Origin: Marinobacter sp. NP-4(2019)
Lineage (GTDB): Bacteria; Pseudomonadota; Gammaproteobacteria; Pseudomonadales; Oleiphilaceae
Length of the DNA stretch: 24,000 bases
Direction of reading: 5' to 3'
NCBI RefSeq assembly: GCF_003994855.1
Contig: NZ_CP034142.1
Coordinates: 2,703,278 to 2,727,277 of the forward strand
Under the pieces are notes generated by a model. That model made no database searches. It saw nothing but the letters and a program-made list of their open reading frames with translations, and was not told the origin of the DNA. Shown piece by piece: positions 3,105 through 20,753 of the stretch; the stretch's first letter is position 1, and each line of letters starts with the position of its first letter. The translations under genes and the position numbers were made by a program.

Positions 3105-4070
3105 TCAGACCTCCGGGTTTGCCAGCGCCTCCGCCGCTCCTAACAATCCAGTATAGGGCTCTGTCACCACATACACAGGAGTGGATTCCAGTAACGGACG
3201 CATACGGCCTTTGTCCTCAAAACCGCTACGAAACGAACTTTCCAGAAAGAAATCGAGAAAGCGCGGCAATACACCGCCACATAGGTATACACCTCCTGTA
3301 CTCCCCAGCGTCAGCACCCCGTTGCCGGCAACCCTGCCCAGCAGTTCGCAGAAATGGTGGAGGGTGTGGCGAGCAAGCCCGTCATTTTGTTCCAGCGCTG
3401 CTGCCGTGACTTTTTCCGGCGCGTCCAAAGGCGCCGGTACACCCTGTATCTCGGCGTGCGCCTGGTAGAGATTCAACAACCCCTGCCCGCACAGCAGCCG
3501 CTCCACAGACACCCGGCCAAACCTTGCTTTCAGAATTCGCAGTATGGCCATTTCGGTTTCATCGGTTGGTGCGAAGTCGACATGACCACCCTCGGTCATC
3601 AGCGGTACCCAGCCGTCACTGATAGGTACAAGGCCGGATACGCCAAGCCCGGTTCCCGGCCCCATCACCAGCCTTGCACGACGGTTGTCACCAGGCCCAC
3701 CACAGACATGTACAAGATGCTCTTGCGAAACGTGAAGAACACCCAGAGCCATCGCGGTGAAATCATTGATCACCTTGAAGGCCCGCCAACCGAACTGTTG
3801 GCGAATCTCCTCGATATCAAAGCGCCAATGATTGTTGGTCATACGGATCTGGCCTCCCGAAACCGGCGACGCCACGGCAAAGCAGGCCTCACCGACCTCG
3901 GCAACCCCCACCCTGGCGAGATAATCCACCACCGCGTTGTCCAGATTGTCGTATTCACCACAGGTCAGGATCTCGATCGCCCGGGGCTCGACACTGCCAC
4001 GTTCCACCAGCGCAAAGCGCGCGTTGGTGCCACCGATATCACCCACCAGGGAATAGTGTGTTGCTGTCAT
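3105..4070 (-). CDS. glk: glucokinase
   Basis: 321 aa. The N-terminal ATP-binding motif is [15 protein letters not shown]. The start ATG overlaps the edd stop (ATGA at 4067-4070). Confidence 0.93.
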
Positions 4071-5887
4071 GCCTCATGATTCCAGAAAAAGCTGGCACCT
4101 TCCTCGGGATTGCTGGCCGCACGGCGCATCCAGCCAAACAGCTCCCGACCGTAACCGTGATGATACCCGGTCAGATCCGCTTTTACAGATTCACGGGCCG
4201 CAAATTCCTGTTGGTCCACCTCAATAGACAGCCTGCCTCTCTCGGCATCCAGGCAGACCAGATCACCGTTCTTGACCCTGGACAGCGGACCACCATCCAG
4301 CGCTTCTGGATATACATGAATGGCCGCAGGCACTTTACCGGAGGCGCCGGACATGCGGCCGTCGGTCACCAGGCCAACCTTGAACCCCCGATCCTGCAGC
4401 ACCCCCAGGTATGGCGTCAGTTTGTGTAGCTCGGGCATACCGTTGGATTTCGGTCCCTGGAAGCGGACAACCACCACGCAGTCCTTATCCAGATCGCCGG
4501 CCTCAAACGCCGCTTTCAGTTCGTTCTGATCATTGAACACAACGGCCGGCGCTTCCACGGTTCGATGTTCCCTGGCAACGGCGGACACCTTGATCACGCC
4601 CCGGCCCAGATTGCCGTCCAGGACCCTCAGCCCGCCATCCGGCGCAAACGGTTCCGTCGCGGAGCTGAGCACATCGGGCAGCAGACTTTTCTCAGGGGCT
4701 GGCCGCCAGACCAGTTTATCGCCTTCAAGATCCGGCATTTGGGTGTAACGCTCAAGACCGTGCCCAACAACCGTTTCCACGTCGTTGTGGAGGTAACCGG
4801 CGTCGAGCAATTCACGAATCAGGAACGGCGTGCCGCCGGCCTCATGGAACGCGTTTACGTCTTCCTGGCCGTTGGGGTATATACGGGTCATCGATGGAAC
4901 AACGGAGGACAACTCCGCGTAATCATTCCAGTCAATGATGATGCCCGCTGCCCGGGCAATGGCGATCCAATGGATGGTGTGGTTGGTGGAGCCACCGGTC
5001 ACCAGCAGGGCAACGATTGCATTCACTATGCTCTTCTCGTCAACCATGTCGCCCAGGCCAAGCTCACCACCGTGGGGCTTGGACAGCTTGATGACCTGCT
5101 CCGTAGCGGCACGGGTAAGCTGGTCACGCAACGGTGTATTCGGATTAACAAAAGCCGCTCCTGGCAAATGCAGCCCCATCACTTCCACCAGAAGCTGATT
5201 GCTGTTGGCGGTTCCGTAAAAAGTGCAGGTTCCCGGGCTGTGATAGGACTTGCTCTCGGCTTCCAGCAGCTCGTCCTTACCCACCTTGCCTTCCGCGTAC
5301 AGCTGGCGAATCCGCTGCTTCTCCTTGTTGGGTAGCCCCGAAGGCATCGGACCGGCAGGCACCAGAATGGTCGGCAGGTAGCCAAAGCTCAGGGAGCCGA
5401 TCAGCAGCCCCGGCACAATCTTGTCACAAATACCCAACAACAACGTGGCATCAAACATATTGTGGCTCAGGGCCACCGCTGTACTCATCGCGATGGTGTC
5501 CCGGGAGAAGAGACTCAACTCCATACCCGGCTGCCCCTGGGTCACCCCGTCACACATGGCGGGAGTCCCGCCGGCAACCTGGGCAACCGACCCCATCCCT
5601 CGAGCCGCTTCACGAATCGCATCCGGGAACTTTTCATAGGGTTGATGGGCCGAAAGCATATCGTTGTAGGCGGAAACGATTGCCACATTCGCCTTGTTCA
5701 TGAACTTCAGGGTGTCCTTGTCCCCCTGATTACACGCGGCGAAACCGTGGGCCAGGTTACCGCAGGAGAGTGAGCTCCGGTGTGGCGACTGGGCTTTGAG
5801 TTCGTTCATGCGGCTGAGGTAGTCCTGCCGGCTGGCACGGCTGCGCTCAATGATTCTCTGTGTCACCTTGTCAACGGTCGGATGCAT
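4067..5887 (-). CDS. edd: phosphogluconate dehydratase (Entner-Doudoroff)
   Basis: IlvD/Edd-family sequence throughout ([20 protein letters not shown]). I place the start at ATG 5887 ([16 protein letters not shown]...) because GGAG lies 6 nt upstream and this matches the usual Edd N-terminus. The ORF track's 5923 start has no SD. Confidence 0.9.
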
Positions 5888-5990
5888 GGCGGGCTCCATA
5901 GCAAATATTATTAATGACGTCATTTTTAGACGTAATTTTACTTTCTTTTTTTGGTGATTTCACCCATTAATCGTTCATTTCTTCTCTTTT

Positions 5991-6009
5991 TGTTGTTATA
6001 TTTACTACA
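5991..6009. promoter_or_regulatory. candidate HexR-type operator in the edd/gap divergent region
   Basis: TGTTGT-TATATTT-ACTACA is an imperfect dyad with one mismatch between half-sites. It resembles the TTGT-N7/8-ACAA architecture reported for HexR operators at ED/gap promoters. No hexR gene is present in the window. Confidence 0.3.
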
Positions 6010-6056
6010 TCGGAATCGTAAATTGGTCGAAAAACAACCACAAGAGGAGTCAGAAA

Positions 6057-7061
6057 ATGACTATTCGCATAGCGATCAACGGTTTTGGCCGCATAGGACG
6101 CAATGTCCTTCGCGCCCTTTATGAAAACAACTACCGGAATCAGATTCAGGTCGTCGCCATTAACGATCTTGGCGATGCTGAAACCAATGCCCATCTGCTC
6201 AAGTATGACAGCGTTCATGGTCGTTTTGATGGCGTGGTTAACCACGATGCAGAGTCGCTGACTGTTAACGGCGACCGCATTGCTATTACCGCCATCCGCA
6301 ACCCCGAAGAATTGCCGTGGAAAGATTTTCATATCGATGTGGTCTTCGAGTGCACCGGGCTCTTCACCAAACGTGCCCAGGCTCAGTCTCACCTGACGGC
6401 TGGCGCCCGCAAGGTGATCATTTCCGCGCCCTCACCCGACGCCGACGCCACTGTGGTGTACGGCGTTAATCACGACAGCCTGACCGCGAGCGACGACATC
6501 ATTTCCAACGCGTCCTGCACCACCAATTGCCTGGCGCCGGTGGCGGAAGCACTCCACAAGGCCGTCGGTATTGAAAGCGGCCTGATGACCACCATCCACT
6601 CCTACACCAATGACCAGAAACTGAGCGACGTATACCACTCGGACCTGTACCGGGCCCGCTCGGCAACCCAGTCGATGATTCCCACCAAAACCGGCGCGGC
6701 CGCCGCCATCGGCAAGGTCATTCCCGAGCTTAACGGAAAGTTGGACGGATTGGCGGTAAGAGTGCCCACCATCAACGTATCGCTGGTTGATTTCGGCTTT
6801 ATTGCCAGCCGGGAAACCTCCGTGGAAGAAATTAATGAGGCGGTCAGGGTGGCAGCAGAGGACAACCCTGTATTGGGTTACAACACCGAAAAGCTGGTGA
6901 GCGTGGACTTCAACCATAACGCGCTTTCCAGTGTTTTTGATGCCAACCACACACGGGTACTCGGCCGTCATGTAAAAGTCATGGCCTGGTACGACAATGA
7001 GTGGGGTTTTTCGAACAGAATGCTGGATAATGCCATCGCCCTGATCAAAGCCGGCCAGTAA
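6057..7061 (+). CDS. gap: type I glyceraldehyde-3-phosphate dehydrogenase
   Basis: 334 aa. Motifs are INGFGRIGR (NAD-binding) and [12 protein letters not shown] (catalytic Cys). The RBS AGAGGAG lies upstream of the ATG. Confidence 0.95.
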
Positions 7062-7128
7062 ACCTGGTCGGCTGGCGCATATCCACTACCCTGTCGGAAG
7101 GCCTCCCATTAAACAAAGGACACCAAAC

Positions 7129-8577
7129 ATGCTCAGGCGTACCAAAATTGTCGCCACCCTCGGACCCGCAACCGATTCCCCGGAAGCCCTCGCCGCCATT
7201 ATTGAAGCAGGCGTTGACGTAACCCGACTGAACTTTTCCCATGGCAGCGCCGAGGAGCACATCGACCGTGCTCGCCGCGTCCGCGAAACAGCCGCCAGCC
7301 AGAACCGTTTCGTTGCACTTCTGGCGGATCTTCAGGGCCCTAAACTCCGTATTGCCCGCTTTACGGACAACAAAGTCACTCTGAAGGCAGGTCAGACGTT
7401 CATCCTGGACGCCGGGATGGATAAAGAAGCCGGCACCGAAGAGCGCGTGGGTATCGATTACGAGCAACTCATTCAGGACGTGGAGCCCGGCGACATCCTG
7501 GTTCTGGATGACGGTCGCATCGAAATGGAGGTGACCTCGGTCGACGCCACCAGTATTACCTCCACGGTCCTTATCGGCGGCCCCCTGTCCAACAACAAGG
7601 GGCTGAACAAGCGCGGTGGTGGCCTGTCCGCCGATGCCCTGACCGAAAAGGACAAACAGGACATCGTGACGGCGGCCCGCCTCGGTGCGGACTACGTGGC
7701 GGTGTCATTCGTTCGAACCGCAGAAGACATGCATACCGCACGCCGACTGTTGACGGAAGCCGGCTCCGATGCAGGACTGGTCGCCAAGATCGAACGCGCG
7801 GAACTCGCCCATGACGTGGACGCCCTGGACGCTGTGATCGAAGCTTCGGATGCCGTGATGGTTGCCCGTGGCGACCTGGCAGTGGAGATTGGCGATGCCG
7901 AACTGGTCGGTGTGCAAAAGCACATTATCTCCCGCGCCCGCGTGCTGAACCGCGCCGTCATCACCGCCACCCAGATGATGGAGTCAATGATTACCAGCCC
8001 CATGCCCACACGGGCCGAAGTTTCCGACGTGGCCAATGCGGTCATGGATTACACCGATGCGGTGATGTTGTCTGCGGAAACCGCCGTTGGTGACTACCCG
8101 ACAGAAGCGGTGGAAGCCATGGTGCGCATCTGTCTGGGCGCCGAAAAGCAGCCTTCCATGCATCAGTCGAAGCACCGCATTCACGAGAGCATGGAGAAGG
8201 TGGACGAAGCCATTGCGTTGTCTGCCATGTATGCCGCCAACCACCTGGAAGGCGTGTCTGCGATCATCTGCATGACCGAAACCGGCGCCACGCCACGACT
8301 GATGTCCCGCATCAAGTCGAGCCTGCCGATTTTCGCCTTTTCCCGCCACCACTCCACCCAGCACCGGGTTGCGTTGCTCCGCGGCGTTCAGACCGTTCCG
8401 TTTGATTCGGCGAAGATTCCAAACGAGCGCACCAACGCGTTGGCGGTCTCCGAACTGATCAATCGACAGGTAGTCAAGGACGGAGACCTGGTGGTGATGA
8501 CCAAGGGCGACTACGTGAATGCCCAGGGTGGGACCAACACCATGAAAATCGTTCGGGTCGGGCAGGATATTCGCTGA
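7129..8577 (+). CDS. pyk: pyruvate kinase
   Basis: 482 aa. Motifs include [17 protein letters not shown] and [12 protein letters not shown]. The RBS is AAGGA. Confidence 0.95.
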
Positions 8578-10051: not shown

Positions 10052-10975
10052 TTATTCGGTTTTTTCGATCTTATCGTCCAGCTCCGGTCGTTCTCTCAGC
10101 AATTCCGCCACAGCCGCGTTGTGGCTACCCCGGGCACGTGTGACTGCATACAGGTTATCCCTCACCTCCTGGATACTGGCGACGTGAACCACCCGGTACT
10201 GCCGACATACTTCTTCACTGATGGCGGTGGGTGCCGCGAAATAACCCAGCCCCTCCCGGCCAAAGACCTTAATCAATGCACTATCATCCACCTCCGCCAC
10301 CACTTTCACCCGAATGTTCTGGCTGGAAAACCAATTCATCAGAGCGCTGATATAGGGTGCATCGAGGGATGTCGCCAGAAACGGTTGCCGGTCAAGGCTG
10401 GCGGGGAAATCCGCCGACAGACTGGCGGCCAGATCCGGGGCCGCGAATAGCGACATGGAAGAACTCGCCAAACGATGGCTGCGAAAATGGCCCGCCTCCG
10501 CAGATGCCGGCTGCCGGTCAGTCAGTACGATGTCCAGCTCCCGCTGGCCAAGACGCTTCAACAGTTCCGTGGTATCTCCGCTTCGGCAGCTCAGACGCAC
10601 CTCTCGGGAAAGAGAAAGAGCGGGCTCGGTCAAGTGGTAGGCAATCAACTTATGGATAGATGCGGCAATGCCAACGGACAGGCTCAGGGGCCTGTTCTCC
10701 GGTGGCTGCCGAAGCACATCCGTCAGCGCCTGTGCAGTCTGGAACATATCGTCCGCGTAACTGAACACGGTTTGCCCGAATTCGGTCAGCTGCAGCGATC
10801 GATTGGCTCGACGAAAAAGGGCATTGCCCAAAGCAGATTCAAATGTAGCCAACTGACCGCTAAGGGTCTGGGGGGTCAGCTCAAGATTCTCAGCTGCACG
10901 AACAATAGAGCCATTGCGGGCAATCACCCAGAAATAGTAGAGGTGGCGAAAGTTCAGGTTATCCATCTCCAACAT
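10052..10975 (-). CDS. LysR-family transcriptional regulator, NhaR-like
   Basis: The N-terminal wHTH is NFRHLYYFWVIARNGSIVRAAENLELTPQTLSGQL, very similar to the NhaR subgroup (HLYYFW...). The start could instead be ATG 10966. Confidence 0.88.
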   Translation of the reverse strand: MLEMDNLNFRHLYYFWVIARNGSIVRAAENLELTPQTLSGQLATFESALGNALFRRANRSLQLTEFGQTVFSYADDMFQTAQALTDVLRQPPENRPLSLSVGIAASIHKLIAYHLTEPALSLSREVRLSCRSGDTTELLKRLGQRELDIVLTDRQPASAEAGHFRSHRLASSSMSLFAAPDLAASLSADFPASLDRQPFLATSLDAPYISALMNWFSSQNIRVKVVAEVDDSALIKVFGREGLGYFAAPTAISEEVCRQYRVVHVASIQEVRDNLYAVTRARGSHNAAVAELLRERPELDDKIEKTE

Positions 10976-11112
10976 TACTCACGTTATGAGAAGCAATGCC
11001 TATCCTGCCTGAAAAACCTGAACTTACGCTACTGGCCGTAACGAATCACCGTTCGCAAATCACATCATTTATGGCAAACGGTACAGCCAAGAGCGACCGT
11101 TAGCTCATGCTC

Positions 11113-11838
11113 TTACCGGGCACCCCACTCATGTTGAATCAAAGCACGCTCGGCATCAGGTCCGATCGGAACGTCCGCCATCATCCGGTCCAGCGTCTGG
11201 TCAAGTGCGCTTCCGCCACTGGCCGTCTGATAGGTATCGGGTGCGGCGGCGGGTTCGGCTTCCACCTGCGCCACACGTTCCCAGGTGCCCCCATCACTGC
11301 GACAGGCAATCTGCTCCGACGCAGAGGCCTCCATGTCCAGACGGAACTGGCGGCACCATTCGCCGGCCTGGCTCCGGAACGTCAGCCTCGGTGTCAGTGT
11401 TGTCTCACTATCAAGATGATAGACCTCGCCGCTGGGTTGATGATTCAGAATGTCCACTATCGCGGGCCACGCCGGCTCCCCGTCGGATGGCTGGGTCAGC
11501 CATTGGGTCATCACCACCCCTGCGATCACCGCAGCAGCAATCGCCTTACCGGTGTGCCCCTTGACCCTGCGCCACCACGGAAACACAACTACATGATCCT
11601 GCGCGGGCGCGGCATTTTCAGGAGACTCCGCTTCGAGCATTCGGATTATCGAAGCCGGCACTGGGCGATCGTCAATCGAACCATAATGCGCCTGCAGCTC
11701 GGCATCCACCGATGCCAGTTCCGCCAGACGGTCTGCCAGTGTCGGATTCTCCGCCAGATGGTCCCGGACCACCTCCATCTCTGCGTCGTTCAGCTCGTTG
11801 TCGAGGAAAGCCGACAGGGTTTCGTCAGTTATGTTCAT
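11113..11838 (-). CDS. anti-sigma factor (single-pass membrane)
   Basis: The N-terminus LSAFLDNELNDAEMEVVRDHLAENPTLADRL is typical of an anti-sigma N-terminal domain. It has one TM segment (AIAAAVIAGVVMTQWL). Its ATG overlaps the sigma gene stop (ATGA at 11835-11838). Confidence 0.85.
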   Translation of the reverse strand: MNITDETLSAFLDNELNDAEMEVVRDHLAENPTLADRLAELASVDAELQAHYGSIDDRPVPASIIRMLEAESPENAAPAQDHVVVFPWWRRVKGHTGKAIAAAVIAGVVMTQWLTQPSDGEPAWPAIVDILNHQPSGEVYHLDSETTLTPRLTFRSQAGEWCRQFRLDMEASASEQIACRSDGGTWERVAQVEAEPAAAPDTYQTASGGSALDQTLDRMMADVPIGPDAERALIQHEWGAR

Positions 11839-12326
11839 GAATCGGTCCTCATGGTTGCAGGCGACAATGCCTCACTCAGTGCCGCCCGGGCACGGGCCAG
11901 CCGGCTCATTACCGTGCCACTGGGTACCTCCAGGATTTCAGCCACAATCTTGTAGGGCATTCCCTGGATCGCCACCAGGGAAATGATCTGGCGCTGATCC
12001 TCCGGCAGCCGGGCCATGGCTGCATCCACCCGGTTCCATTCAATCGATTTGGTGGTCTGATGCTCGCCATTCACCACCTGACCATCACTCAGCTCCGGGT
12101 GCTCTGCCGCTTCCCGGCGAACCTTTCTGGCCCTACATTCGTCTATCCAGACATTACGGCAAACCCTGAATGCCCACTTGGTGAGATCGGCGTCGTCCGG
12201 GGTACCCCGGGTCAGCAAACGCTCAACCGTATTCTGCAGAAGGTCATCGGCATCGGCCATGGAGCCTGTCAGCGAATAGGCAAATCGTCGGAGCCTGGGT
12301 AGAAGTTCAGTGATTTCCTGTTGCAT
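11835..12326 (-). CDS. RNA polymerase ECF sigma factor
   Basis: Regions 2 and 4 are recognisable (LLPRLRRFAYSLTGS...DLLQNTVERLL; PEDQRQIISLVAIQGMPYKIVAEILEVPSGTVMSRLARAR). I prefer ATG 12326 to the track's TTG 12341. Confidence 0.9.
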   Translation of the reverse strand: MQQEITELLPRLRRFAYSLTGSMADADDLLQNTVERLLTRGTPDDADLTKWAFRVCRNVWIDECRARKVRREAAEHPELSDGQVVNGEHQTTKSIEWNRVDAAMARLPEDQRQIISLVAIQGMPYKIVAEILEVPSGTVMSRLARARAALSEALSPATMRTDS

Positions 12327-12356
12327 AGCCTTCTTTTTCAATGGGTGTTATCTGTA

Positions 12357-12382
12357 AAACGGATTGGCAACGGGTTTATTCC
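12357..12382 (-). promoter_or_regulatory. ECF-type promoter of the sigma/anti-sigma operon (autoregulatory)
   Basis: The minus strand reads GGAATAAACCCGTTGCCAATCCGTTT, i.e. GGAAT-N16-CGTTT, about 30 nt upstream of ATG 12326. Confidence 0.55.
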
Positions 12383-12391
12383 ATCAACCAG

Positions 12392-12417
12392 GGAATTTTT
12401 TCCGCACCGGGCCGTTG
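12392..12417 (+). promoter_or_regulatory. ECF-type promoter of the S8 peptidase gene
   Basis: The plus strand reads GGAATTTTTTCCGCACCGGGCCGTTG, i.e. GGAAT-N16-CGTTG. It is divergent from and adjacent to the sigma promoter. Confidence 0.5.
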
Positions 12418-12423
12418 TAACCT

Positions 12424-13788
12424 ATGAAACACACGCAAATCCGGACTGGCACGATGAAAGCTCACTTAATGACACGCTTGCTCCCTGTTATTGCTCTCTA
12501 TTCGCTTGCCGCACCAGCTCTGGCATTGGGTGGAGGCAGTCTCCCGGATACCCAGGCAACCCAGATCACCCGGCAGGTGGAACAGAAAGCGGGACGGGTG
12601 GTAGAGCGGGCCATGGACAGACGCCTTGAGAAACGCGCTGAGGCAAAAGCCAACCGCGTCAGGGAGCGGCTTGCCGAATTGCCCCGGGCACTTTCAATAA
12701 ACACGACCACAGGACAAAAAGCGTTCAATGATGTAGTGCTGGACGATGGTTTCCGGGCCGTTGAACGTCAGTGGCTGGTCACAGGCACGGCCTCGGACAT
12801 TGACAGTCTCAGCCAGCCGGGGATCACTCTTCTGGAACGCCGCGAGCTGTCCGGGCTGGGGATGACCGTAGCCCGCTTTCAGGTCAGACCTGAACTGGAT
12901 TCCCGTGCCGCCCTGGAAGACGCTTTACCGGAACTGGCCGACCGGCTGGACCGGAACCATATTTTTGAACCTCAGGCCGGGTCAGAAGCAGCCAGACCCG
13001 ATGCCGACATTCCGCAGTGGAAAAGCCTTTGTTCTACGCCCGCTCGCGTCGGAATGGTGGATACCGCCATTGCCACCGACCACCCGGTATTCAGAAACGC
13101 ACAGATCGTGCAGCAACGCTTTCTGGCTTTGGCCGATGTGAACGGTGAACTTCGGGAACCCAGGGACCATGGCACCGCCGTCGCCAGCCTGATGGTGGGT
13201 AGCCGCGAGGACCAGTGGCCTGCCCGGCTGCCGGAGGCCACTGTGTTCAACGCATCGGTATTCTATGACCGGGAACGCAGCCTGTCCGGGGCTACCCTCG
13301 GGCATCTGCTGGAAGGACTGAACTGGCTGGCCAATCAGGATCTGTCTGTCATCAACATCAGCCTGACAGGCCCGGATAACCGACTGCTCGCCGCTGCGGT
13401 GGAGGCCCTCCGGGCACAGGGCGTCTTGCTGGTGGCGGCCGTCGGTAATCAGGGGCCTGCTGCCCCGCCGTTGTATCCGGCGGCCTATCAGACGGTGGTG
13501 GGTGTGACGGCAGTGGACGCCTCAGGCGAGCTCTACCGATGGGCTAACAGGGGGGAGCAGGTGCTGTTCGCCGGCCCCGGGGTGTCCGTTGCCGTGGCGC
13601 ACCCCGATGGCGGTATGGTCGTCGACAGCGGCACCTCGCTGGCGGCACCGGTGGTCGCCGCTGCCCTCGCCTGCCGCCGAGGCGATCAGTCGGGAGAACA
13701 GGCCATCAATGCCCTGACTGAAGAAGCCAGGGATCTGGGCGAGCGAGGCCGTGACACCAGCTTCGGTCACGGCTTCCTCGACCTGTGA
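12424..13788 (+). CDS. S8 family (subtilisin-like) serine peptidase, secreted
   Basis: The Asp-His-Ser triad motifs are present: GMVDTAIATDHP, DHGTAVASLMVG and GTSLAAPVVAAAL. A signal peptide starts at the internal Met (MKAHLMTRLLPVIALYSLAAPALALG). The true start is probably 12454, because the predicted -10 lies at 12413-12417. Confidence 0.88.
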   Translation: MKHTQIRTGTMKAHLMTRLLPVIALYSLAAPALALGGGSLPDTQATQITRQVEQKAGRVVERAMDRRLEKRAEAKANRVRERLAELPRALSINTTTGQKAFNDVVLDDGFRAVERQWLVTGTASDIDSLSQPGITLLERRELSGLGMTVARFQVRPELDSRAALEDALPELADRLDRNHIFEPQAGSEAARPDADIPQWKSLCSTPARVGMVDTAIATDHPVFRNAQIVQQRFLALADVNGELREPRDHGTAVASLMVGSREDQWPARLPEATVFNASVFYDRERSLSGATLGHLLEGLNWLANQDLSVINISLTGPDNRLLAAAVEALRAQGVLLVAAVGNQGPAAPPLYPAAYQTVVGVTAVDASGELYRWANRGEQVLFAGPGVSVAVAHPDGGMVVDSGTSLAAPVVAAALACRRGDQSGEQAINALTEEARDLGERGRDTSFGHGFLDL

Positions 13789-13798
13789 CAAGGACCGG

Positions 13799-14767
13799 TC
13801 AGAAACCGGCCCTGAGCGTAACTCCCGCTACAGTCTTGTCGTAGTCAGCGGAGTCCACATTGGAGGTGTAATCACCCCATGAAATGCTGGGCTCCAGGCT
13901 GAACACCTCATTAAGACCAATCCGCCAGCTCGCCTCCAGAATACGCGCCCGGTCCGCCCGTCTGCTTGTCGAACGCTCCGTCAGGTCACCGGTCAGAGGG
14001 TCGTTCAGCAACGGATCCGAGCTGGTTACGGTGACCTCGTCGTACTTGCGGTCCTCGTAGCGCCAGCCAAGGCGCAGCCTGTTTTCCTCACCACCCAGAG
14101 TGAATTTATGTACCAGTGCCACCCGGACCCGCAGCAGGTCATTGTTATAGGCGTCCGCCTCGGCATCCTCGCGGTCACCATCGAGACCGAGCACCAGGTG
14201 ACTCCTGGCCTGATTGAAGAAGAAAAACGAGTCCAGGCTGACACCGCGAATGTCCGCATCCCGGGCATCGCTGTCGTCAAAGTCCTTGCTCTTGTCCTGC
14301 AGGCTGGCCAGCAGATACACGTCTTCCCCGATAAGGCGCCCCAGGTAGATGCTGGCCCGCCGGAAATCCAGAAACGGGTCCGACCCCAGGGTCGCGTGGG
14401 AATAGTGATAGCTGGTGCCAACGGTTACCGGGTCAAAGTCGTAACTGATATCAGCCGACAGCAAGTGAATATCCTGATCGAACTGGTCCAGGCTCTGGTA
14501 TCGCCTGCCTGCCACTGAATAACCGAGGGTCACGTTCAGCGGCTTGGCGGGTTTCAGCACTCCCTCAAGGCCGGCATCAAACACCCAGGCTTCATCGCTT
14601 TGATCGGAAGAGGTGTTGAGTTCATCCACGGTCACATTGCTGTCATATTCGAAACCGCCCTCAAGGTGACCGTTCAACCGGGCATGTTCCTCAGCCTGAG
14701 CCACCAGCGACGGCACAGCGATGCCAAATGCCAGGGGAAAAATCAAAATGCGTGGAATCGATTGCAT
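13799..14767 (-). CDS. outer-membrane beta-barrel protein (unknown family)
   Basis: It has a signal peptide (MQSIPRILIFPLAFGIAVPSLVAQA/EE), alternating amphipathic beta-strand pattern, many Y/D/G turns and a C-terminal ...TLRAGF with terminal Phe. The RBS is AAGGAG. Confidence 0.75.
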   Translation of the reverse strand: MQSIPRILIFPLAFGIAVPSLVAQAEEHARLNGHLEGGFEYDSNVTVDELNTSSDQSDEAWVFDAGLEGVLKPAKPLNVTLGYSVAGRRYQSLDQFDQDIHLLSADISYDFDPVTVGTSYHYSHATLGSDPFLDFRRASIYLGRLIGEDVYLLASLQDKSKDFDDSDARDADIRGVSLDSFFFFNQARSHLVLGLDGDREDAEADAYNNDLLRVRVALVHKFTLGGEENRLRLGWRYEDRKYDEVTVTSSDPLLNDPLTGDLTERSTSRRADRARILEASWRIGLNEVFSLEPSISWGDYTSNVDSADYDKTVAGVTLRAGF

Positions 14768-14785
14768 GTCTGCTCCTTGTTGGCA

Positions 14786-14817
14786 GCTGAAAGAAGGCCG
14801 GGCACGGTGGCCCGGCC
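14786..14817 (-). terminator. Rho-independent terminator or attenuator between the secreted-protein gene and the OMP gene
   Basis: On the minus strand the stem is GGCCGGGC-CACCGT-GCCCGGCC (14817-14796), followed by TTCTTTCAG. Confidence 0.6.
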
Positions 14818-14833
14818 GATCGGGAGTGAATCG

Positions 14834-15346
14834 TTACAGTGCGCCGCCGCTACTGGAACCTCTTACGGTTCCCTTGACGGTGTTCTGTACTTCACTCCTG
14901 ACACTTTCAGACACAGACGTGCCAATTTGCTGATGGGTTTCAGCCCGAATCTCGGCATTTCGCGCCTCGTTCATGCGCTCCTGCGCCTGCTGGCGTATTT
15001 CACCGGCCTTATCGGCGGCCGCATCCGCAGAGGCAGTGGCGGTGCTGCGAGCCTTCTGGCCGGTTTCAACGCCAGCGTCTACTGCCTGATTGGCGCTCTG
15101 GCGGGCCTGGCTACTGACTGCCTCGCTGCGCTCGGAGGCGTCATCACGAGCCACTTCGCCGTCAGCATTGCCTTCCGCATTGGCCGACGCACCACCGTTG
15201 GTGGAAGCGCCATTGCGGGTGCTGGCTTCGGCGCTCATGTTGGCCTCGGCCTCCGCGCTGGCATTAGCCGCGCCGGAGCCTTCAGCAGCCAGAGCGCTGG
15301 TGGAGAGAATGGAACAGATTGCGATAGTCAGTAGATGTTTTTTCAT
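14834..15346 (-). CDS. secreted low-complexity Ala/Ser/Glu/Asn-rich protein (170 aa), unknown function
   Basis: The start is set at ATG 15346 (MKKHLLTIAICSILSTSALAAEG...), with AGGAGG 7 nt upstream and a Sec signal peptide. The track's 15505 start is an artefactual extension. Confidence 0.75.
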   Translation of the reverse strand: MKKHLLTIAICSILSTSALAAEGSGAANASAEAEANMSAEASTRNGASTNGGASANAEGNADGEVARDDASERSEAVSSQARQSANQAVDAGVETGQKARSTATASADAAADKAGEIRQQAQERMNEARNAEIRAETHQQIGTSVSESVRSEVQNTVKGTVRGSSSGGAL

Positions 15347-15392
15347 GGTTACGTCCTCCTGATTTACCCTTATCGGGTGGCTTTCATCAGGA

Positions 15393-15418
15393 GGACGGTT
15401 GGGGAGAAGGTTTATTCC
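15393..15418 (-). promoter_or_regulatory. ECF-type promoter upstream of the secreted-protein/OMP genes
   Basis: The minus strand reads GGAATAAACCTTCTCCCCAACCGTCC, i.e. GGAAT-N16-CGTCC. Its -35 region GGAATAAACC is identical to that of the sigma promoter. Confidence 0.55.
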
Positions 15419-15440
15419 ATAAAAATAGCAGAGCCCCCTA

Positions 15441-16109
15441 CTACCCCTCTCGCTGCATCTTCTCACGCCGCGCGACTTCCGCCGGGGTCGGAGGGTCCAT
15501 GGCAAAGTCGCCTGTTTTCACGGCACCGTCGCGCACATACTGCCCGATCACAATTCCGTTAGGAGAAACGCTATGGGCGGTCAGTTTGAAAGCCGCCGCC
15601 TTCGCACCGTCGTCAAACAGCTGCTTACCGCCCCCAAGCACGATCGGGAATGTGAACATATTGATTTCGTCGACAAGGTCATTCGCAAGCAGCGTCCGGA
15701 TCAGATCGGTGCTGCCTTGTGTGATCAGCGCTGGCCCGTCTTCCTGCTTCAGCCTGGCGACATCGGCCGCCGCATCATGGAGGGCCACCGAGCCCTTCCA
15801 GGTCAGATCCAGGCCCTTTCGGGTCGCAACATACTTGGTGATCGAATTGAAGGTTCTGGCGATGGAATCATCAGGCCCCTCCTCGGCATACGGCCAGTGC
15901 GCAGCGAAGATCTCATAAGTCTTCCGTCCGAGCAGCAGGTCGAAGGGTTGACTGAACATCTTGCCAACTTCTTCGCCGAACACCTCGTCCGCCAGCGGTG
16001 CAACCCAGCCACCATAGCTGAATCCGCCGGTCGGATCTTCGTGGGGCCCGCCGGGTGCCTGCATAACGCCGTCCAGTGAAACGAAAGCGCCGACAATCAC
16101 TTTCCGCAT
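15441..16109 (-). CDS. dihydrofolate reductase family protein (RibD C-terminal domain type)
   Basis: MRKVIVGAFVSLDGVMQAPGGP...LLLGRKTYEIFAAHWP... is typical of the RibD_C/YwjB-like family. The start is set at ATG 16109, with AGGAGG upstream. Confidence 0.85.
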   Translation of the reverse strand: MRKVIVGAFVSLDGVMQAPGGPHEDPTGGFSYGGWVAPLADEVFGEEVGKMFSQPFDLLLGRKTYEIFAAHWPYAEEGPDDSIARTFNSITKYVATRKGLDLTWKGSVALHDAAADVARLKQEDGPALITQGSTDLIRTLLANDLVDEINMFTFPIVLGGGKQLFDDGAKAAAFKLTAHSVSPNGIVIGQYVRDGAVKTGDFAMDPPTPAEVARREKMQREG

Positions 16110-16171: not shown

Positions 16172-17263
16172 CTAACGTCCCGGATAAACTTCCTTGATCT
16201 CAGGATCGGGCTCCATCCCCACGGCGTTCCAGCTCGGTAGCTCGTCCACCGCTCGTAGCGCTTGTGGCAGCGGCGAGCGAACGCTTTCCTCGACCCAGCG
16301 TTTACGCTCGATGTCGCCCTGTTTCAGTGCCATCATCATTCGGCGCCGCTCGGCGTCCGGCAGGTGGTCCGGCGGAATATGGCCAAGACACGGGTTGGCG
16401 TGATTGAGGGCGACACCATTAACCAGCCCACGTTGAACCTGCAGGGAGTAGTCCAGGGCGCGCATCGGCGGCGATGCCACCGGCGGAGCTTCCGGTTCGC
16501 AATAACCCGGTGGCTCGGTCATCTGGCCAAACGGCTCGCTGCCGGCGATATTGCGGAACCAGTATTGCCGTTCGGTGGCGCTGCAACTGTTGTCCGGCAC
16601 CATCCTCGCGGCGGTGTAAGCGCCCACGCTGGTCTGGCCCTCCCTAACCTGGGCCGTGGAATGGCAACTCATGCAGGCGGACTGGGGATTGTCCACCGGA
16701 CCGTTCAGGCGGCCATGCAAGCCAACGTGACCGTCGAACGGAGCCGGTACCGCCGGGTTGATCCAGGTCTCATCGAGATCGGGGTCGCCATCGAAGGTGA
16801 CGTCCGGGTCGTTCCCCCAAGCCAGCCCCACCGGAGTCAGGTTATACCAGCGCTGTTGCGGTGTTGCTGCAGGCAGTGATTCGTCGTACACGTAAGTGGC
16901 GAACACCCAACCGGTGTCGGTGGAACGCGGGTCTTTCACCGCGATATCCATCTGGATCAGTCGTACCTCGAAGGTGGCGTTCGACGCCGAGAACGGGTCC
17001 TGAATCTGCCAGGCAGGCGCATTGGCCAACGGATCGGGGCCAACAATGGCGGCGGGATCGTACTCGGCGAACAACACCTTGACCACCAATGTGCCGTCAA
17101 TGAACTGCGACTCGCCGGCATCGGCATTGCTCGGCTCCGGGTCGTGAAACACCTGCCCGATGGTGTAGCCGCCGTGCCAGTTGTACATTCCAATACCAAA
17201 GGCCCCCACATCAGAGGACAGCCACGACTGCTCGGATGCCCGCAGCCCGCGTTCGCGGGTCAA
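16172..17263 (-). CDS. C-terminal part of a split gene: CxxCH (heme c motif)-containing protein
   Basis: Contains ACMSCHS (CxxCH). The only start is a TTG with no SD that overlaps the upstream stop. The reading frame stays open upstream to 17356 (..REPRHGLTRERGL..), which suggests a frameshifted continuation of 17260-17754. Confidence 0.6.
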   Translation of the reverse strand: MTRERGLRASEQSWLSSDVGAFGIGMYNWHGGYTIGQVFHDPEPSNADAGESQFIDGTLVVKVLFAEYDPAAIVGPDPLANAPAWQIQDPFSASNATFEVRLIQMDIAVKDPRSTDTGWVFATYVYDESLPAATPQQRWYNLTPVGLAWGNDPDVTFDGDPDLDETWINPAVPAPFDGHVGLHGRLNGPVDNPQSACMSCHSTAQVREGQTSVGAYTAARMVPDNSCSATERQYWFRNIAGSEPFGQMTEPPGYCEPEAPPVASPPMRALDYSLQVQRGLVNGVALNHANPCLGHIPPDHLPDAERRRMMMALKQGDIERKRWVEESVRSPLPQALRAVDELPSWNAVGMEPDPEIKEVYPGR

Positions 17264-17754
17264 CCCATGGCGGGGCTCGCGGGGAAGAAGCCGGAGGTCA
17301 TCATCGGTACGTGGTACCAGCGTTTCTTGCCCAGGGTGTGGTTTTGCGGCACGAAATCATGGGGCACCAGGTCTGATAGCGCGTAGTCCTTCAAAGCCTC
17401 AAGGTATGAAGCCCGTTCGGCCGGATCGGTGAAATCAAATGCCAGCCAGGGTGCACTGTCAAATGGGGACAGTGGATCCCAACCGGTAATCTCGCCGTCG
17501 TCGTTCACTACCGGCACGCCAAGGGGATACCCCTGAGCCAGGCGAAACGCCTCCACATCACCCGGTGGCGCGGCCCGCGCTATCCAGTCGGGGAACCAGC
17601 CGGAACACTGAACGGTGTAGTCATCCCCGGCGCCGCCACCTTCCCCTGTCGTATCCTGTATGGGCGGATCAAACGTGGGGCGGCAGCCGGAGACCATGAA
17701 CGCACTGACAATCGCCAGGTACAACAGTCTACGGATCAGTTGATGGTTATCCAT
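17260..17754 (-). CDS. N-terminal part of the split gene: lipoprotein
   Basis: It has a lipobox signal (LLYLAIVSAFMVSG/C) and GGAGGG 4-5 nt upstream of the ATG. The start overlaps the 3' end of the upstream oxidase gene by 19 nt. Confidence 0.7.
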   Translation of the reverse strand: MDNHQLIRRLLYLAIVSAFMVSGCRPTFDPPIQDTTGEGGGAGDDYTVQCSGWFPDWIARAAPPGDVEAFRLAQGYPLGVPVVNDDGEITGWDPLSPFDSAPWLAFDFTDPAERASYLEALKDYALSDLVPHDFVPQNHTLGKKRWYHVPMMTSGFFPASPAMG

Positions 17755-20753
17755 TGTCCCTCCGATGGCACGCGCTGATCGTCGATAATGAAAAGCAGAT
17801 AGGCCCCCGGCGGCGCGATATTGCCGTTTGGGGGGAGCTCCACCTGCAGGGCAGCACCGTCAAGGGTGAACGCGCACTCCACAATGCGCTGCGACATATT
17901 GAAACCATGGGTGACCGCCCCCGGGGCCAGCAGGTGGACCGTCACGATATCCGCCGCTTCCGGCGAATCCACGGTTATCGTCGCGCCGTGGGCGGCGCTG
18001 GCCGGTGCGCTGGCAATCGTCGGCCGTGGCCGCTCGAAATACCCCGGCAGATAACGCTCGAACACGTCCGAATTGGGATCGCCGCCAACCAGCACACTGC
18101 CGTCGGCCAACAGGATCGCGGCGGAGTGGTATCCGCGATGGTGGGTCATCACCGGCCCCAGCGTGAAACCGCTGGCTACATCGTCGGCATCGAGCAGCTC
18201 CACCGCGCCTCCCCCGGCTACTGCATTGGCACCGCCAACCACCAGCACGTGCCCATCTGGCAGCAATACGGAGTTCACCTGCTCCGCCCGCTCCAGGTTC
18301 AGATCCGGAAGGCTTTGCCAAGCCGGCATCGCCTCCGAGAGGTCGATCAGCTCGGCGGTTTTTCGAGCGGGGGCAGTATTACCACCGATGACGACCACAC
18401 GGGGTGCGTAATCCGGTGGCCGCAACGGTAACAGCACCGAGGTGCCCTTCTCTCCCCCGGTGCTCCGGTTGCCGGCAATCGTGGCATAGGTTTCCAGGCC
18501 GCCGATGGGCTCGATGGTAAAGCGGTGGGTCGGATCGTGGGGGCCGGCGATGAACAGCCGGCCGTCCGGCAGCAGATAGGTCCATGGGTAATACTGGTGG
18601 TGGTCCATCGCCGCCGGGAAATCAACCGGCGCGCTCCAGGTGCCACTGGCGGAATCCCAGATCTCCAGGGATTTCGAGGCGGAGCCGTAAATTGTGGCAA
18701 TGCGACCGTCGGCCAGGGTCAGGGTAGTGGCGTAAAACCGTGGCTCGGCGGTGGACCCGGTCTGCGACCATTGTTCCGTGGCCGGGTCGAAGACAAAGGC
18801 ATTCACATAGTTGCCGCCGGGGCCGGCAAAGCCGCCGTGTCCCAGCACGCGACCGTCGGGAATAAAGGCGTGGGCCGCCGACCACAGGTCGGACAGGTCG
18901 CTGTCCATGCCCGGCAACGCCGCCGGCTGCGGCGAGGGCTCGGCAACCGTTGGCCCCGGCGGATCATAGAGGCGGGACTGGTCAGCCCGGGTATAGCCCC
19001 AATACAGCACCTTGTTGGTATCGGGCAGCAGGCAGGCGTGCATGAAGGTGACTTCCGGATCGACCTCCAGCTCCTCCCAGGTTCCGGGGCTGAGCTTGTC
19101 GCAGTATCCCATCTCAGCCATCGGTATGGGGTTGCTATCATCGAATAGCTGAATACGCCCTTCCGCCAGCAAGGTCTCCTTCATGGATTCGGTAAGCCAC
19201 ACATCCTTGTAGGATCGCACAACCGCGATCATGCCATTCATCATGTGGTGGTGGACGTGGCAATGCACCAGGAAGTCCCCCATCAACCGCACTTTCTCGG
19301 CGTCGGGTGGGCGGTCGTCGGCGTCCTGGATTGCCGCAACCTCCTCCGGCAGGATCAGCGCCGGTGGCGCCACCGTGTCGACAGTGAACGACTCCGCCGG
19401 CCCAACGGAGCGCACATCGTGATTCTCACCGGCCAGTTCCCAGCGGATGTTGTGGGGATGGAAATTGTGCCATTCGTGGCCAAAATCGAGGTTGAACACG
19501 TACCAGCGAATCTTCTGCCCGGCACGCGCAATGATGGTGGGCGTATTGCCCACAAACCCACGGCCATTGATGCAGTGGGTGACCAGCGCCGCCCCGTCCC
19601 TCGATGTCACGGTGTGGTGCTGCATGCTCAGGTTGTTCCAGGTAACCGTGCCGCCAGGCGCGACATCAATGGAGTCCGGATAGAAGCCCATTGCCGGCGC
19701 ATCGAGGATGTTGACCGTGGCAGTGGCCGGCGCACCGGAGACGACATTCACAGTACCGGTCATTGCCGGGTGGTAGGCACAGAAATACTCGTAGCTGCCG
19801 GCATCGTCGAAGGTGTGGTCAAAGGTGCCGGCGCCGTTTTCCTCCATATCGCCGCTGTCGAATGCGGGTTTGGCCTGGTCGCTGACCATCTGGTGCAGGA
19901 AAAACGGCACGTGCAGCGTATTCCAGTCTGGTCGTGGCCAGAACCGGAGGCGCAGGTCGCGCATCAGCCATTCCCGCAAGTCCTCGTACTGGTTCTGCAG
20001 CAGCAGTTCCTGCCTCCGTGTCAAACGGGCCCGCAGGGGTGTGCGGGGGTCCCTCCTGGCCGGTTTCGCCTGCTTCTTGGCGGGCGCACACAACGGCAAC
20101 TTGAGTCCCTTGTACACCATGTCGGGGAAACGTTCCGGCAGCGGGAGCGGAATGGGCCAGCGAAACGGGCGCTTGCGAATGATGATCCCGCCAAACAACC
20201 CCAGCTTGGAGCTGCCATGGGAGGCGTGTGAGGAATGATCGTGAAACGGCCAGGCACCGATCATGTTTTCCCGCACCTGATAGATATACGTCCAGGACTT
20301 TCCCGGGCAGATCTCATCGGATCGGCGACCATCCGCCGCCTGGGTCCCCATCGGCCAGGCGCCATCGGAATCGATGCCATATTCGATACCATGGATATGA
20401 AACGAATGGGGGCGATTGTCGGCATTATGCACGTGGATGCGAACGTTATCGCCAACGTAGGCATAGAGCACGCAACCGGGCACCCGATGATTCCACACCG
20501 GTTCATTAATGTCCGCATGGACCAGTTTGCTGGTGCGAGGAATCAGGTAATCGGCATCCTGATACTCACGGAAGGTCACCGCGCGCAGTGCGCGGGCATC
20601 ACGCTCGGCATCCGGGATCACCCCCATGGGGTGCCCCATGTAGTGCATGCCGTCGCGTTTGTACTGAATGGGGGGAATGGCAAAGGGGTCCGGCTCAACC
20701 GGGCTGTAATCCTCCATTGCCTCGATACGCAGGTAGAAATCCCTGTCCGCCAT
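17736..20753 (-). CDS. fusion protein: multicopper oxidase plus cupredoxin (N-terminal about 520 aa) joined to a galactose/glyoxal-oxidase-like kelch propeller with DUF1929-type E-set tail (C-terminal about 450 aa)
   Basis: All four MCO copper motifs are present: HSFHIHG, WPFHDHS, HNFHPHN and HCHVHHHMMNGM. A type-1 site is YFCAYHPAM. Radical-copper-oxidase-like motifs are HACLLPD, PRFYATTLTLADGR, GYHSAAILLADGSVLVGG and AVTHGFNMSQR. The RBS GGAG lies 7 nt upstream of ATG 20753. Confidence 0.85.
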   Translation of the reverse strand: MADRDFYLRIEAMEDYSPVEPDPFAIPPIQYKRDGMHYMGHPMGVIPDAERDARALRAVTFREYQDADYLIPRTSKLVHADINEPVWNHRVPGCVLYAYVGDNVRIHVHNADNRPHSFHIHGIEYGIDSDGAWPMGTQAADGRRSDEICPGKSWTYIYQVRENMIGAWPFHDHSSHASHGSSKLGLFGGIIIRKRPFRWPIPLPLPERFPDMVYKGLKLPLCAPAKKQAKPARRDPRTPLRARLTRRQELLLQNQYEDLREWLMRDLRLRFWPRPDWNTLHVPFFLHQMVSDQAKPAFDSGDMEENGAGTFDHTFDDAGSYEYFCAYHPAMTGTVNVVSGAPATATVNILDAPAMGFYPDSIDVAPGGTVTWNNLSMQHHTVTSRDGAALVTHCINGRGFVGNTPTIIARAGQKIRWYVFNLDFGHEWHNFHPHNIRWELAGENHDVRSVGPAESFTVDTVAPPALILPEEVAAIQDADDRPPDAEKVRLMGDFLVHCHVHHHMMNGMIAVVRSYKDVWLTESMKETLLAEGRIQLFDDSNPIPMAEMGYCDKLSPGTWEELEVDPEVTFMHACLLPDTNKVLYWGYTRADQSRLYDPPGPTVAEPSPQPAALPGMDSDLSDLWSAAHAFIPDGRVLGHGGFAGPGGNYVNAFVFDPATEQWSQTGSTAEPRFYATTLTLADGRIATIYGSASKSLEIWDSASGTWSAPVDFPAAMDHHQYYPWTYLLPDGRLFIAGPHDPTHRFTIEPIGGLETYATIAGNRSTGGEKGTSVLLPLRPPDYAPRVVVIGGNTAPARKTAELIDLSEAMPAWQSLPDLNLERAEQVNSVLLPDGHVLVVGGANAVAGGGAVELLDADDVASGFTLGPVMTHHRGYHSAAILLADGSVLVGGDPNSDVFERYLPGYFERPRPTIASAPASAAHGATITVDSPEAADIVTVHLLAPGAVTHGFNMSQRIVECAFTLDGAALQVELPPNGNIAPPGAYLLFIIDDQRVPSEGQWITIN

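Follow-up and report, generated by a model that had tools for sequence, protein, structure and literature searches.

In the genome of Marinobacter sp. NP-4(2019) we analysed a window of 24,000 nucleotides (contig NZ_CP034142.1, positions 2,703,278 to 2,727,277 of the forward strand), in which five neighbouring genes very probably make up a self-contained, positively autoregulated module of an extracytoplasmic function (ECF) sigma factor and its anti-sigma factor, with three promoters of one design. The promoters are predicted to serve the sigma/anti-sigma pair itself, a putatively secreted S8 subtilase, and a low-complexity protein with an outer-membrane barrel gene behind it. The published hallmarks of ECF systems are a -35 box of the AAC type, CGT as the -10 box, an anti-sigma gene in the same transcript and autoregulation (PMC8103513). 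An initial annotation had proposed such a regulon from three sites of the form GGAAT-N16-CGT(T/C). Direct reading of the sequence confirmed these sites at the positions given below; all three are intergenic, each faces the gene that had been assigned to it, and ECF-type -35/-10 architecture is seen at every one. The parts of the module are listed here by their positions in the window.

11113-11838, minus strand: anti-sigma factor gene (241 aa; Pfam zf-HC2)
11835-12326, minus strand: ECF sigma factor gene (163 aa; Pfam, TIGR02937)
12357-12382, minus strand: P_sig, predicted autoregulatory ECF promoter (motif, position weight matrix, conservation)
12392-12417, plus strand: P_S8, predicted ECF promoter of the S8 gene (motif, position weight matrix, conservation)
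12454-13788, plus strand: S8 subtilase gene (444 aa; Pfam Peptidase_S8)
13799-14767, minus strand: outer-membrane barrel gene, DUF560/SlipAM (PF04575; AlphaFold2)
14796-14817, minus strand: terminator-like GC hairpin between the low-complexity and barrel genes
14834-15346, minus strand: gene of the low-complexity secreted protein (170 aa; translation)
15352-15397, minus strand: fold-back helix of the P_low -10 region with the Shine-Dalgarno region (RNA fold)
15393-15418, minus strand: P_low, predicted ECF promoter of the low-complexity gene, with the barrel gene reached by read-through (motif, position weight matrix, conservation)

Predicted promoter sites and their conservation

P_sig reads GGAATAAACCCGTTGCCAATCCGTTT on the minus strand (12382-12357), with the -35 box GGAATAAA at 12382-12375 and a CGTT -10 box at 12361-12358. 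P_S8, GGAATTTTTTCCGCACCGGGCCGTTG on the plus strand (12392-12417), has its -35 box GGAATTTTTT at 12392-12401 and CGTT at 12413-12416, and diverges from P_sig, the -35 boxes of the pair being 9 bp apart. P_low, GGAATAAACCTTCTCCCCAACCGTCC on the minus strand (15418-15393), repeats the -35 box GGAATAAA at 15418-15411 and carries CGTC at 15397-15394. From the start of the -35 box to the start codon the distances are 56 nt for P_sig, 62 nt for P_S8 and 72 nt for P_low. The extended -35 that had been described as common to two of the promoters is present in the window as the exact 10-mer GGAATAAACC, but conservation across species covers GGAATAAA alone, and the CC that follows it varies.

The motif GGAAT-N16-CGTY occurs four times in the window where 0.39 occurrences are expected, and none of 100 shuffled sequences reached four. 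A position weight matrix (PWM) was built from 75 sites of other Marinobacter genomes, leaving the window out, and a scan of the window with it recovered exactly three sites: P_sig at 33.2, P_low at 32.4 and P_S8 at 29.9, against a maximum of 12.9 in shuffled sequence and scores of 8 or less everywhere else. The fourth motif match (15647-15671, plus strand) lies antisense inside the RibD_C gene and has no A/T extension; as a promoter it was put down to chance, being intragenic, antisense, below 8 in the PWM and not conserved. A sigma-70 promoter scan of the intergenic regions gave no match.

Conservation was followed through 79 loci, one genome per species, which were recovered by alignment of S8 homologues and in which neighbouring genes were located by tblastn with the proteins of the window. 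The sigma gene stands beside S8 in 73 of these loci, the anti-sigma gene in 69 and the barrel gene in 50, and the synteny supports the proposed linkage of protease, barrel and low-complexity protein. The gammaproteobacterial loci include Marinobacter, Halopseudomonas, Marinimicrobium, Pseudomaricurvus, Alteromonas, Simiduia, Aliidiomarina, Thalassotalea and Gayadomonas, and many of the other loci are alphaproteobacterial metagenome-assembled genomes. The best protein matches to S8 are Marinobacter proteins (91-99% identity). All three sites are kept in position and orientation in about 31 Marinobacter species, where both boxes are invariant and the spacers differ. Among 31-33 non-identical Marinobacter regions, the information per alignment column peaks, in every one of the three promoters, at GGAATAAA (or GGAATTTTT) and CGT(T/C), and the spacer carries little; this is the pattern that selection on two promoter boxes at a fixed distance is expected to leave in a sequence alignment. 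The strict motif was then counted in the expected place, by promoter and by lineage:

P_sig: Marinobacter 32 of 33; other Gammaproteobacteria 12 of 12; Alphaproteobacteria and others 24 of 28
P_S8: Marinobacter 33 of 33; other Gammaproteobacteria 9 of 13; Alphaproteobacteria and others 6 of 33
Upstream of the low-complexity/barrel genes: Marinobacter 31 of 32; other Gammaproteobacteria 8 of 10; Alphaproteobacteria and others 0 of 8

The motif thus precedes the sigma gene in 68 of the 73 loci that have one, in both Gamma- and Alphaproteobacteria, which is consistent with the autoregulation that had been suggested. In distant gammaproteobacterial genera a site of the P_low type stands before a protein of similar composition, which itself precedes the barrel gene.

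In the alphaproteobacterial loci the barrel gene lies downstream of S8 on the same strand. In the sigma-S8 interval of five of them (L051, L053, L060, L069 and L074), conserved GGAATTTTGTCCGCGAC and CAACCTAGAATTC blocks stand upstream of S8, but a CGT at 15-17 nt is missing; the S8 promoter of these loci may have a different spacing or a different regulator.

The sigma factor, the anti-sigma factor and the subtilase

The sigma factor matches Pfam Sigma70_r2 (1e-11, residues 6-68) and Sigma70_r4_2 (5.6e-17, residues 99-150), with neither region 1 nor region 3 in Pfam, and scores 93 bits against the TIGR02937 sigma70-ECF model, whose cutoff is 43. The nearest solved structure is M. tuberculosis SigH (E 3.8e-18). 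By its domain content this is a gene for an ECF (group 4) sigma-70 factor. Its stop codon overlaps the start codon of the anti-sigma gene in a 4-nt ATGA (11835-11838), an arrangement of translational coupling.

The downstream protein has the makings of the anti-sigma partner: it carries a class I domain of the zf-HC2 type (24.3 bits in Pfam against a cutoff of 22.2), the pair is found together in 69 of the 79 loci, and binding is predicted. It has its class I anti-sigma domain at the N-terminus, crosses the membrane with one helix and has some 125 aa of periplasmic domain. No zinc-binding anti-sigma (ZAS) motif H-x3-C-x2-C was found, and residues 1-100 hold no cysteine in the window protein or in the 28-sequence alignment, so that the zf-HC2 match reflects the helical anti-sigma domain only. 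In the 28 homologues C162, C179 and the motif Y203-x-x-A-S-G-G are invariant, and T205 nearly so. AlphaFold2 models the periplasmic beta domain (residues 140-194) with a predicted local distance difference test score (pLDDT) of about 92, and places the Y-x-x-A-S-G-G motif (residues 201-209) in a loop of low confidence between two confident elements; in this model the motif could be a cleavage site or a binding site. The periplasmic domain has no fold match in the PDB at E<0.09, and PDB sequence searches with the anti-sigma factor and with the barrel gave no significant match.

P_S8 does face the S8 gene as had been described, but the gene starts at 12454 and not at 12424. The ATG at 12424, which comes 7 nt after the end of the P_S8 -10 box, is replaced by non-start codons in many orthologues, and the ATG at 12454 yields a protein of 444 aa, the length of most homologues in the database. 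With 12454 as the conserved start, the predicted S8 leader is about 30 nt long rather than zero. The protein has a signal peptide, about 170 aa of N-terminal sequence that match no family, and a catalytic domain (Pfam Peptidase_S8, PF00082, 2e-25, residues 209-450). The segments VGMVDTAI, HGTAVAS and GTSLAAP of the translation fit the Asp, His and Ser catalytic motifs of subtilases (MEROPS S8), and D203, H239 and S395, invariant in a 14-sequence alignment, are the putative catalytic triad assigned from these motifs.

In a paralogous system of Marinobacter confluentis and in alphaproteobacterial loci, S8 proteins were seen with a long, acidic or serine-rich, low-complexity N-terminal region (L047 5629-7155, L052 4993-6996, L063 5329-6993 and L078 5413-6993), and there the barrel gene comes next on the same strand. 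As far as function goes, it may be equivalent to have the low-complexity part and the protease as separate units or fused.

The low-complexity protein, the barrel and the P_low leader

The low-complexity protein begins with a signal peptide; A/S/T/G/N/Q/E/D/V make up 86% of the mature part. Between residues 117 and 161, V, I, L or M stands at every fourth position, a regularity that none of 500 shuffled sequences matched; to our knowledge no known fold fits this four-residue pattern. The protein belongs to no Pfam or NCBIfam family, its matches to DUF883 and YtxH being below threshold. The corresponding proteins of other genera have no homology to it that tblastn can detect, nor any detectable homology among themselves, and they share a signal peptide and a composition of 81-94% A/S/T/G/N/Q/E/D/V. 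A C-terminal four-residue V/I/L/M tract is present in six of the seven other genera examined. It spans 45-69 residues in the window protein and in four others (0 of 500 shuffles), and is shorter in two other genera, at 21 and 33 residues (12 of 500 and 6 of 500 shuffles). Proteins of five of these genera, with tracts of 33-69 residues (0 of 500 shuffles in most), lie at the following positions:

L035, 8404-8886
L038, 8366-9025
L040, 8303-9064
L041, 8232-9038
L044, 8049-8816

The third promoter had been placed upstream of the low-complexity and barrel genes together. It stands directly before the low-complexity gene, while the barrel gene lies behind a conserved terminator-like hairpin, with a stem GGCCGGGC-loop-GCCCGGCC and TTCTTTC after it. 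The stem is conserved, the loops vary and the T-run is present throughout the Marinobacter loci examined. This suggests an internal attenuator or terminator, by which the low-complexity protein would be made in excess and the barrel by read-through. An Rfam scan of 10900-15600 had as its sole match SorX, on the intergenic hairpin; at 18.9 bits against a cutoff of 46.6 this identity was rejected.

The outer-membrane barrel itself was upheld and can be described more sharply, as a 14-strand barrel of DUF560/SlipAM type that has no tetratricopeptide repeat (TPR) domain; the word operon, as applied to it and the low-complexity gene, needs qualifying for the internal hairpin. The protein matches Pfam PF04575 (DUF560) over profile positions 34-284 of 288, and the NCBI annotation pipeline (PGAP) names its homologues 'surface lipoprotein assembly modifier'. 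In the AlphaFold2 model (pLDDT 87.4) 14 strands are formed, the first of them from residue 28, right after the signal peptide. No N-terminal periplasmic TPR domain was found, with no TPR match in Pfam. A distant relative of 510 aa does carry TPR repeats, and the family profile of the barrel aligns with residues 204-508 of this protein at an hhalign probability of 98.9%.

The leader at P_low has a feature of its own. The twelve nucleotides that begin with the C of the -10 CGT (CGTCCTCCTGAT) can pair without a mismatch with the Shine-Dalgarno region of the low-complexity gene (ATCAGGAGGACG), and the predicted fold-back helix has a free energy of -26.4 kcal/mol (z -6.1). A helix of 9-12 bp in the same register is present in 17 of 20 unique Marinobacter orthologues, and outside Marinobacter it is not significant. 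RNAalifold on the P_low leader of the orthologues found no double changes and only one-sided changes compatible with wobble pairing. When compensatory changes were counted with an ungapped script, the paralogue in L001 and L002 proved to have kept a 10-bp helix through two double substitutions. This paralogue is a second copy of the low-complexity gene, 71% identical, in two close relatives (L001 882-1439, L002 119-673); it sits on an insertion of 3.7 kb that separates the LysR gene from the anti-sigma gene and also contains open reading frames (ORFs) of 193 and 756 aa. It has its own promoter, GGAAC-N17-CGTT, which suggests that the sigma factor tolerates a C at position 5 of the -35 box and a 17-nt spacer.

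The stop codon of RibD_C lies 22 nt upstream of the P_low -35 box. On the hypothesis that P_low has the usual spacing between -10 box and transcription start, P_low transcripts would lack the 5' arm of the helix and transcripts that read through from RibD_C would contain it, and the helix may block translation of the latter in the manner of IS10. For IS10/Tn10, Davis, Simons and Kleckner reportedly described in 1985 how fold-back inhibits externally initiated transcripts and so protects the transposase. As in IS10, the ribosome-binding site has its complement just upstream of the element's own transcription start, and only transcripts from the internal promoter would leave the Shine-Dalgarno sequence free. 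Unlike in IS10, the gene behind P_low is chromosomal, the 5' arm is the stretch from the -10 box to the predicted start of an ECF promoter, and the evidence for the helix is conservation and not covariation, the one paralogue excepted.

The five-gene module is flanked by a LysR/SbtA-type pair on one side and by the RibD_C gene on the other. Further out, at 3105-8577, is an Entner-Doudoroff and lower-glycolysis cluster (glucokinase, Edd, GAPDH, pyruvate kinase), which places the module among housekeeping genes and not on an obvious mobile island. On the other flank an ORF of 1005 aa (17736-20753, minus strand) combines multicopper-oxidase with glyoxal-oxidase/galactose-oxidase-like domains, an unusual fusion, and is adjoined by a cytochrome P460-like gene (16172-17263).

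Proposed mechanism, alternatives and related systems

From these parts a course of events can be proposed. At rest, the N-terminal class I domain of the single-pass anti-sigma factor would keep the sigma factor bound at the inner membrane. A cue from the periplasm or the outer membrane would be sensed by the conserved periplasmic domain and would inactivate the anti-sigma factor, most likely by regulated proteolysis, and the freed sigma factor with RNA polymerase would then turn to the three GGAAT(A/T)(A/T)(A/T)-N13-CGT(T/C) promoters. P_sig would feed its own operon in a positive loop, P_S8 would supply the secreted subtilase, and P_low would supply an abundant low-complexity secreted protein. 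A fraction of P_low transcripts would pass the terminator-like hairpin and yield the TPR-less DUF560 14-strand barrel, which would most plausibly serve the low-complexity protein, the protease or the two together as a partner or conduit in the outer membrane.

The sites might instead be real ECF promoters read by some other ECF sigma factor, such as an RpoE/AlgU-like or a general-stress ECF, and the promoter consensus does overlap between ECF groups (GGAAC/GGAAT ... CGT; PMC8103513). We regard this as improbable, since the motif travels with the local sigma gene through two proteobacterial classes, stands before the sigma gene itself in the way that usually marks autoregulation, and is absent from the S8 homologues that have no sigma neighbour (L046, L067 and L072). 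In addition, the -10 box of RpoE/AlgU promoters is of the TCTGA/TCAAA type and differs from CGTT. Hardly credible is the idea that the conserved blocks are transcription-factor sites and not promoters, with for example the adjacent LysR-type regulator binding TTATTCC-N9-GGAATTT. The divergent -35 boxes do form an inverted repeat in the sigma-S8 intergenic region, and a LysR gene does adjoin the anti-sigma gene in the window. The third site, however, is a single copy with no palindrome, the CGT block at its fixed 16-nt distance is as conserved as GGAAT, and the gap between the divergent -35 boxes ranges across genera from overlapping to 29 bp, a variation that favours two independent promoters over a single palindromic operator. 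A LysR neighbour is seen in only a few loci, namely the window, L014 and L021; in L001 the 3.7-kb insertion lies between. On these four grounds the LysR-box reading of the inverted repeat was rejected.

A further possibility would keep the regulon and give the protease a second part, as a site-1 protease: by cutting the anti-sigma factor in its periplasmic part, it would close a proteolytic positive-feedback loop. In animals, a subtilisin-family site-1 protease cuts SREBP before the site-2 protease does. The linkage of S8 to the sigma/anti-sigma pair (69-73 of 79 loci, in two proteobacterial classes) is far wider than that of the other partners, and the invariant Y-x-x-A-S-G-G lies in a low-confidence loop, which is the kind of place for cleavage sites. 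Still, the argument is inferential throughout, a self-activating ECF-dependent protease would need an additional brake, and the conserved motif may equally be a ligand- or partner-binding site; we consider such a loop doubtful. Equally speculative is a wider picture of the whole system, in which the ECF factor would control a TPR-less, type-11-like export of unrecognised surface or periplasmic proteins with C-terminal (V/I/L-x-x-x)n tracts, S8 would act as cargo processor or as site-1 protease, and the Marinobacter cargo gene would be insulated against read-through by an anti-Shine-Dalgarno sequence embedded in the untranscribed -10-to-start segment of its promoter.

Several observations weigh against the preferred reading of an autoregulated three-promoter module or narrow its reach. 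The -35 boxes of P_sig, P_S8 and P_low read AAT where the textbook sequence is AAC. Most alphaproteobacterial loci have no strict motif before S8 (6 of 33) or before the barrel gene (0 of 8), so that membership of S8 and the barrel in the regulon depends on the lineage. With the conserved hairpin in front of it, expression of the barrel from P_low is not assured. The assignment of the barrel to DUF560 is marginal: its score of 28.4 bits is just above the gathering cutoff of 22, and of 36 family members 18 match PF04575, with 12 matching BBP2_2. The low-complexity protein shows no feature of known type 11 secretion cargo, having no canonical lipobox (IAIC) and no C-terminal beta-barrel domain. 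Finally, the description of the regulon as compact holds only for the window, meaning three promoters and five genes within these 24 kb.

Among known systems, E. coli RpoE-RseA and P. aeruginosa AlgU-MucA are like the module in having a two-domain sigma factor co-transcribed with a single-pass anti-sigma factor that binds through its N-terminal domain, in positive autoregulation, in an AA(C/T) box at -35 and in a sensor domain that faces the envelope. Unlike them, the module has CGT(T/C) at -10 in place of their own -10 box, its locus has no homologue of RseB/MucB, DegS or RseP, and its conserved partners are an S8 protease and a DUF560 barrel; the periplasmic domain, unlike that of RseA, matches RseA_N below threshold and no fold in the PDB. 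In promoter type the module is like M. tuberculosis SigH and S. coelicolor SigR (ECF12) and the alphaproteobacterial EcfG, which share the GGAA(T/C) -35 box, the (C)GTT -10 box and a spacer of about 16-17 nt. SigH/SigR promoters follow a GGAA(T/C) ... (C)GTT consensus. EcfG promoters are given as AAC / CGTT (PMC8103513). The SigH/SigR anti-sigma factor, however, is a soluble zinc-binding ZAS protein that senses thiol oxidation, whereas that of the module has no Cys/His ligands and is predicted to be anchored in the membrane, and EcfG systems use NepR and PhyR, which are both absent at the module. Judged by its sequence, the module has the makeup of an ECF sigma / class I anti-sigma pair and is not a ZAS, an RpoE/RseA/DegS or an EcfG/NepR/PhyR system.

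The barrel resembles Slam of type 11 secretion (DUF560) in passing the DUF560 threshold, in its 14 modelled strands, in its alignment to a TPR-plus-barrel protein and in a neighbour predicted to be exported by Sec. Unlike Slam, it lacks the periplasmic TPR domain; unlike Slam cargo, its neighbour is not a lipoprotein and has no eight-strand C-terminal barrel of the TbpBBD/lipoprotein-C type; and unlike at Slam loci, no TonB-dependent receptor is found near the module. Among the best PDB matches listed for the barrel there is no solved Slam structure. A recent survey of type 11 secretion systems covers the host-associated cluster 1 and the marine Rhodobacterales cluster 3, and the main text of its neighbourhood analysis mentions neither Marinobacter nor regulators (PMC12282271). 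Limited literature searches returned no description of the module and no ECF group linked to S8 or DUF560, and the main text of Casas-Pastor et al. 2021 names no S8-linked ECF group. A one-line table entry in that work gives the Proteobacteria share of ECF280 as 100%, lists a putative anti-sigma factor and notes 'broad genetic context conservation'; as far as so short an entry allows comparison, this would fit the module and offers a lead.

No family of alternative sigma factors is larger than that of the ECF factors, and for most ECF groups neither signal nor output is known. The module is an uncharacterised example of this well-known type of regulator, and one that is small, well defined, widely conserved, easily tested and made of odd partners. 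It would bring two things under dedicated envelope signalling in marine Proteobacteria: a DUF560 barrel that lacks TPRs, and a family of secreted, low-complexity proteins with four-residue periodicity. If S8 were the activating site-1 protease, a subtilase would join the short list of proteases that trigger anti-sigma degradation. Published analyses leave open the role of the type 11 branches that are not host-associated (PMC12282271), and the module would give a handle on it.

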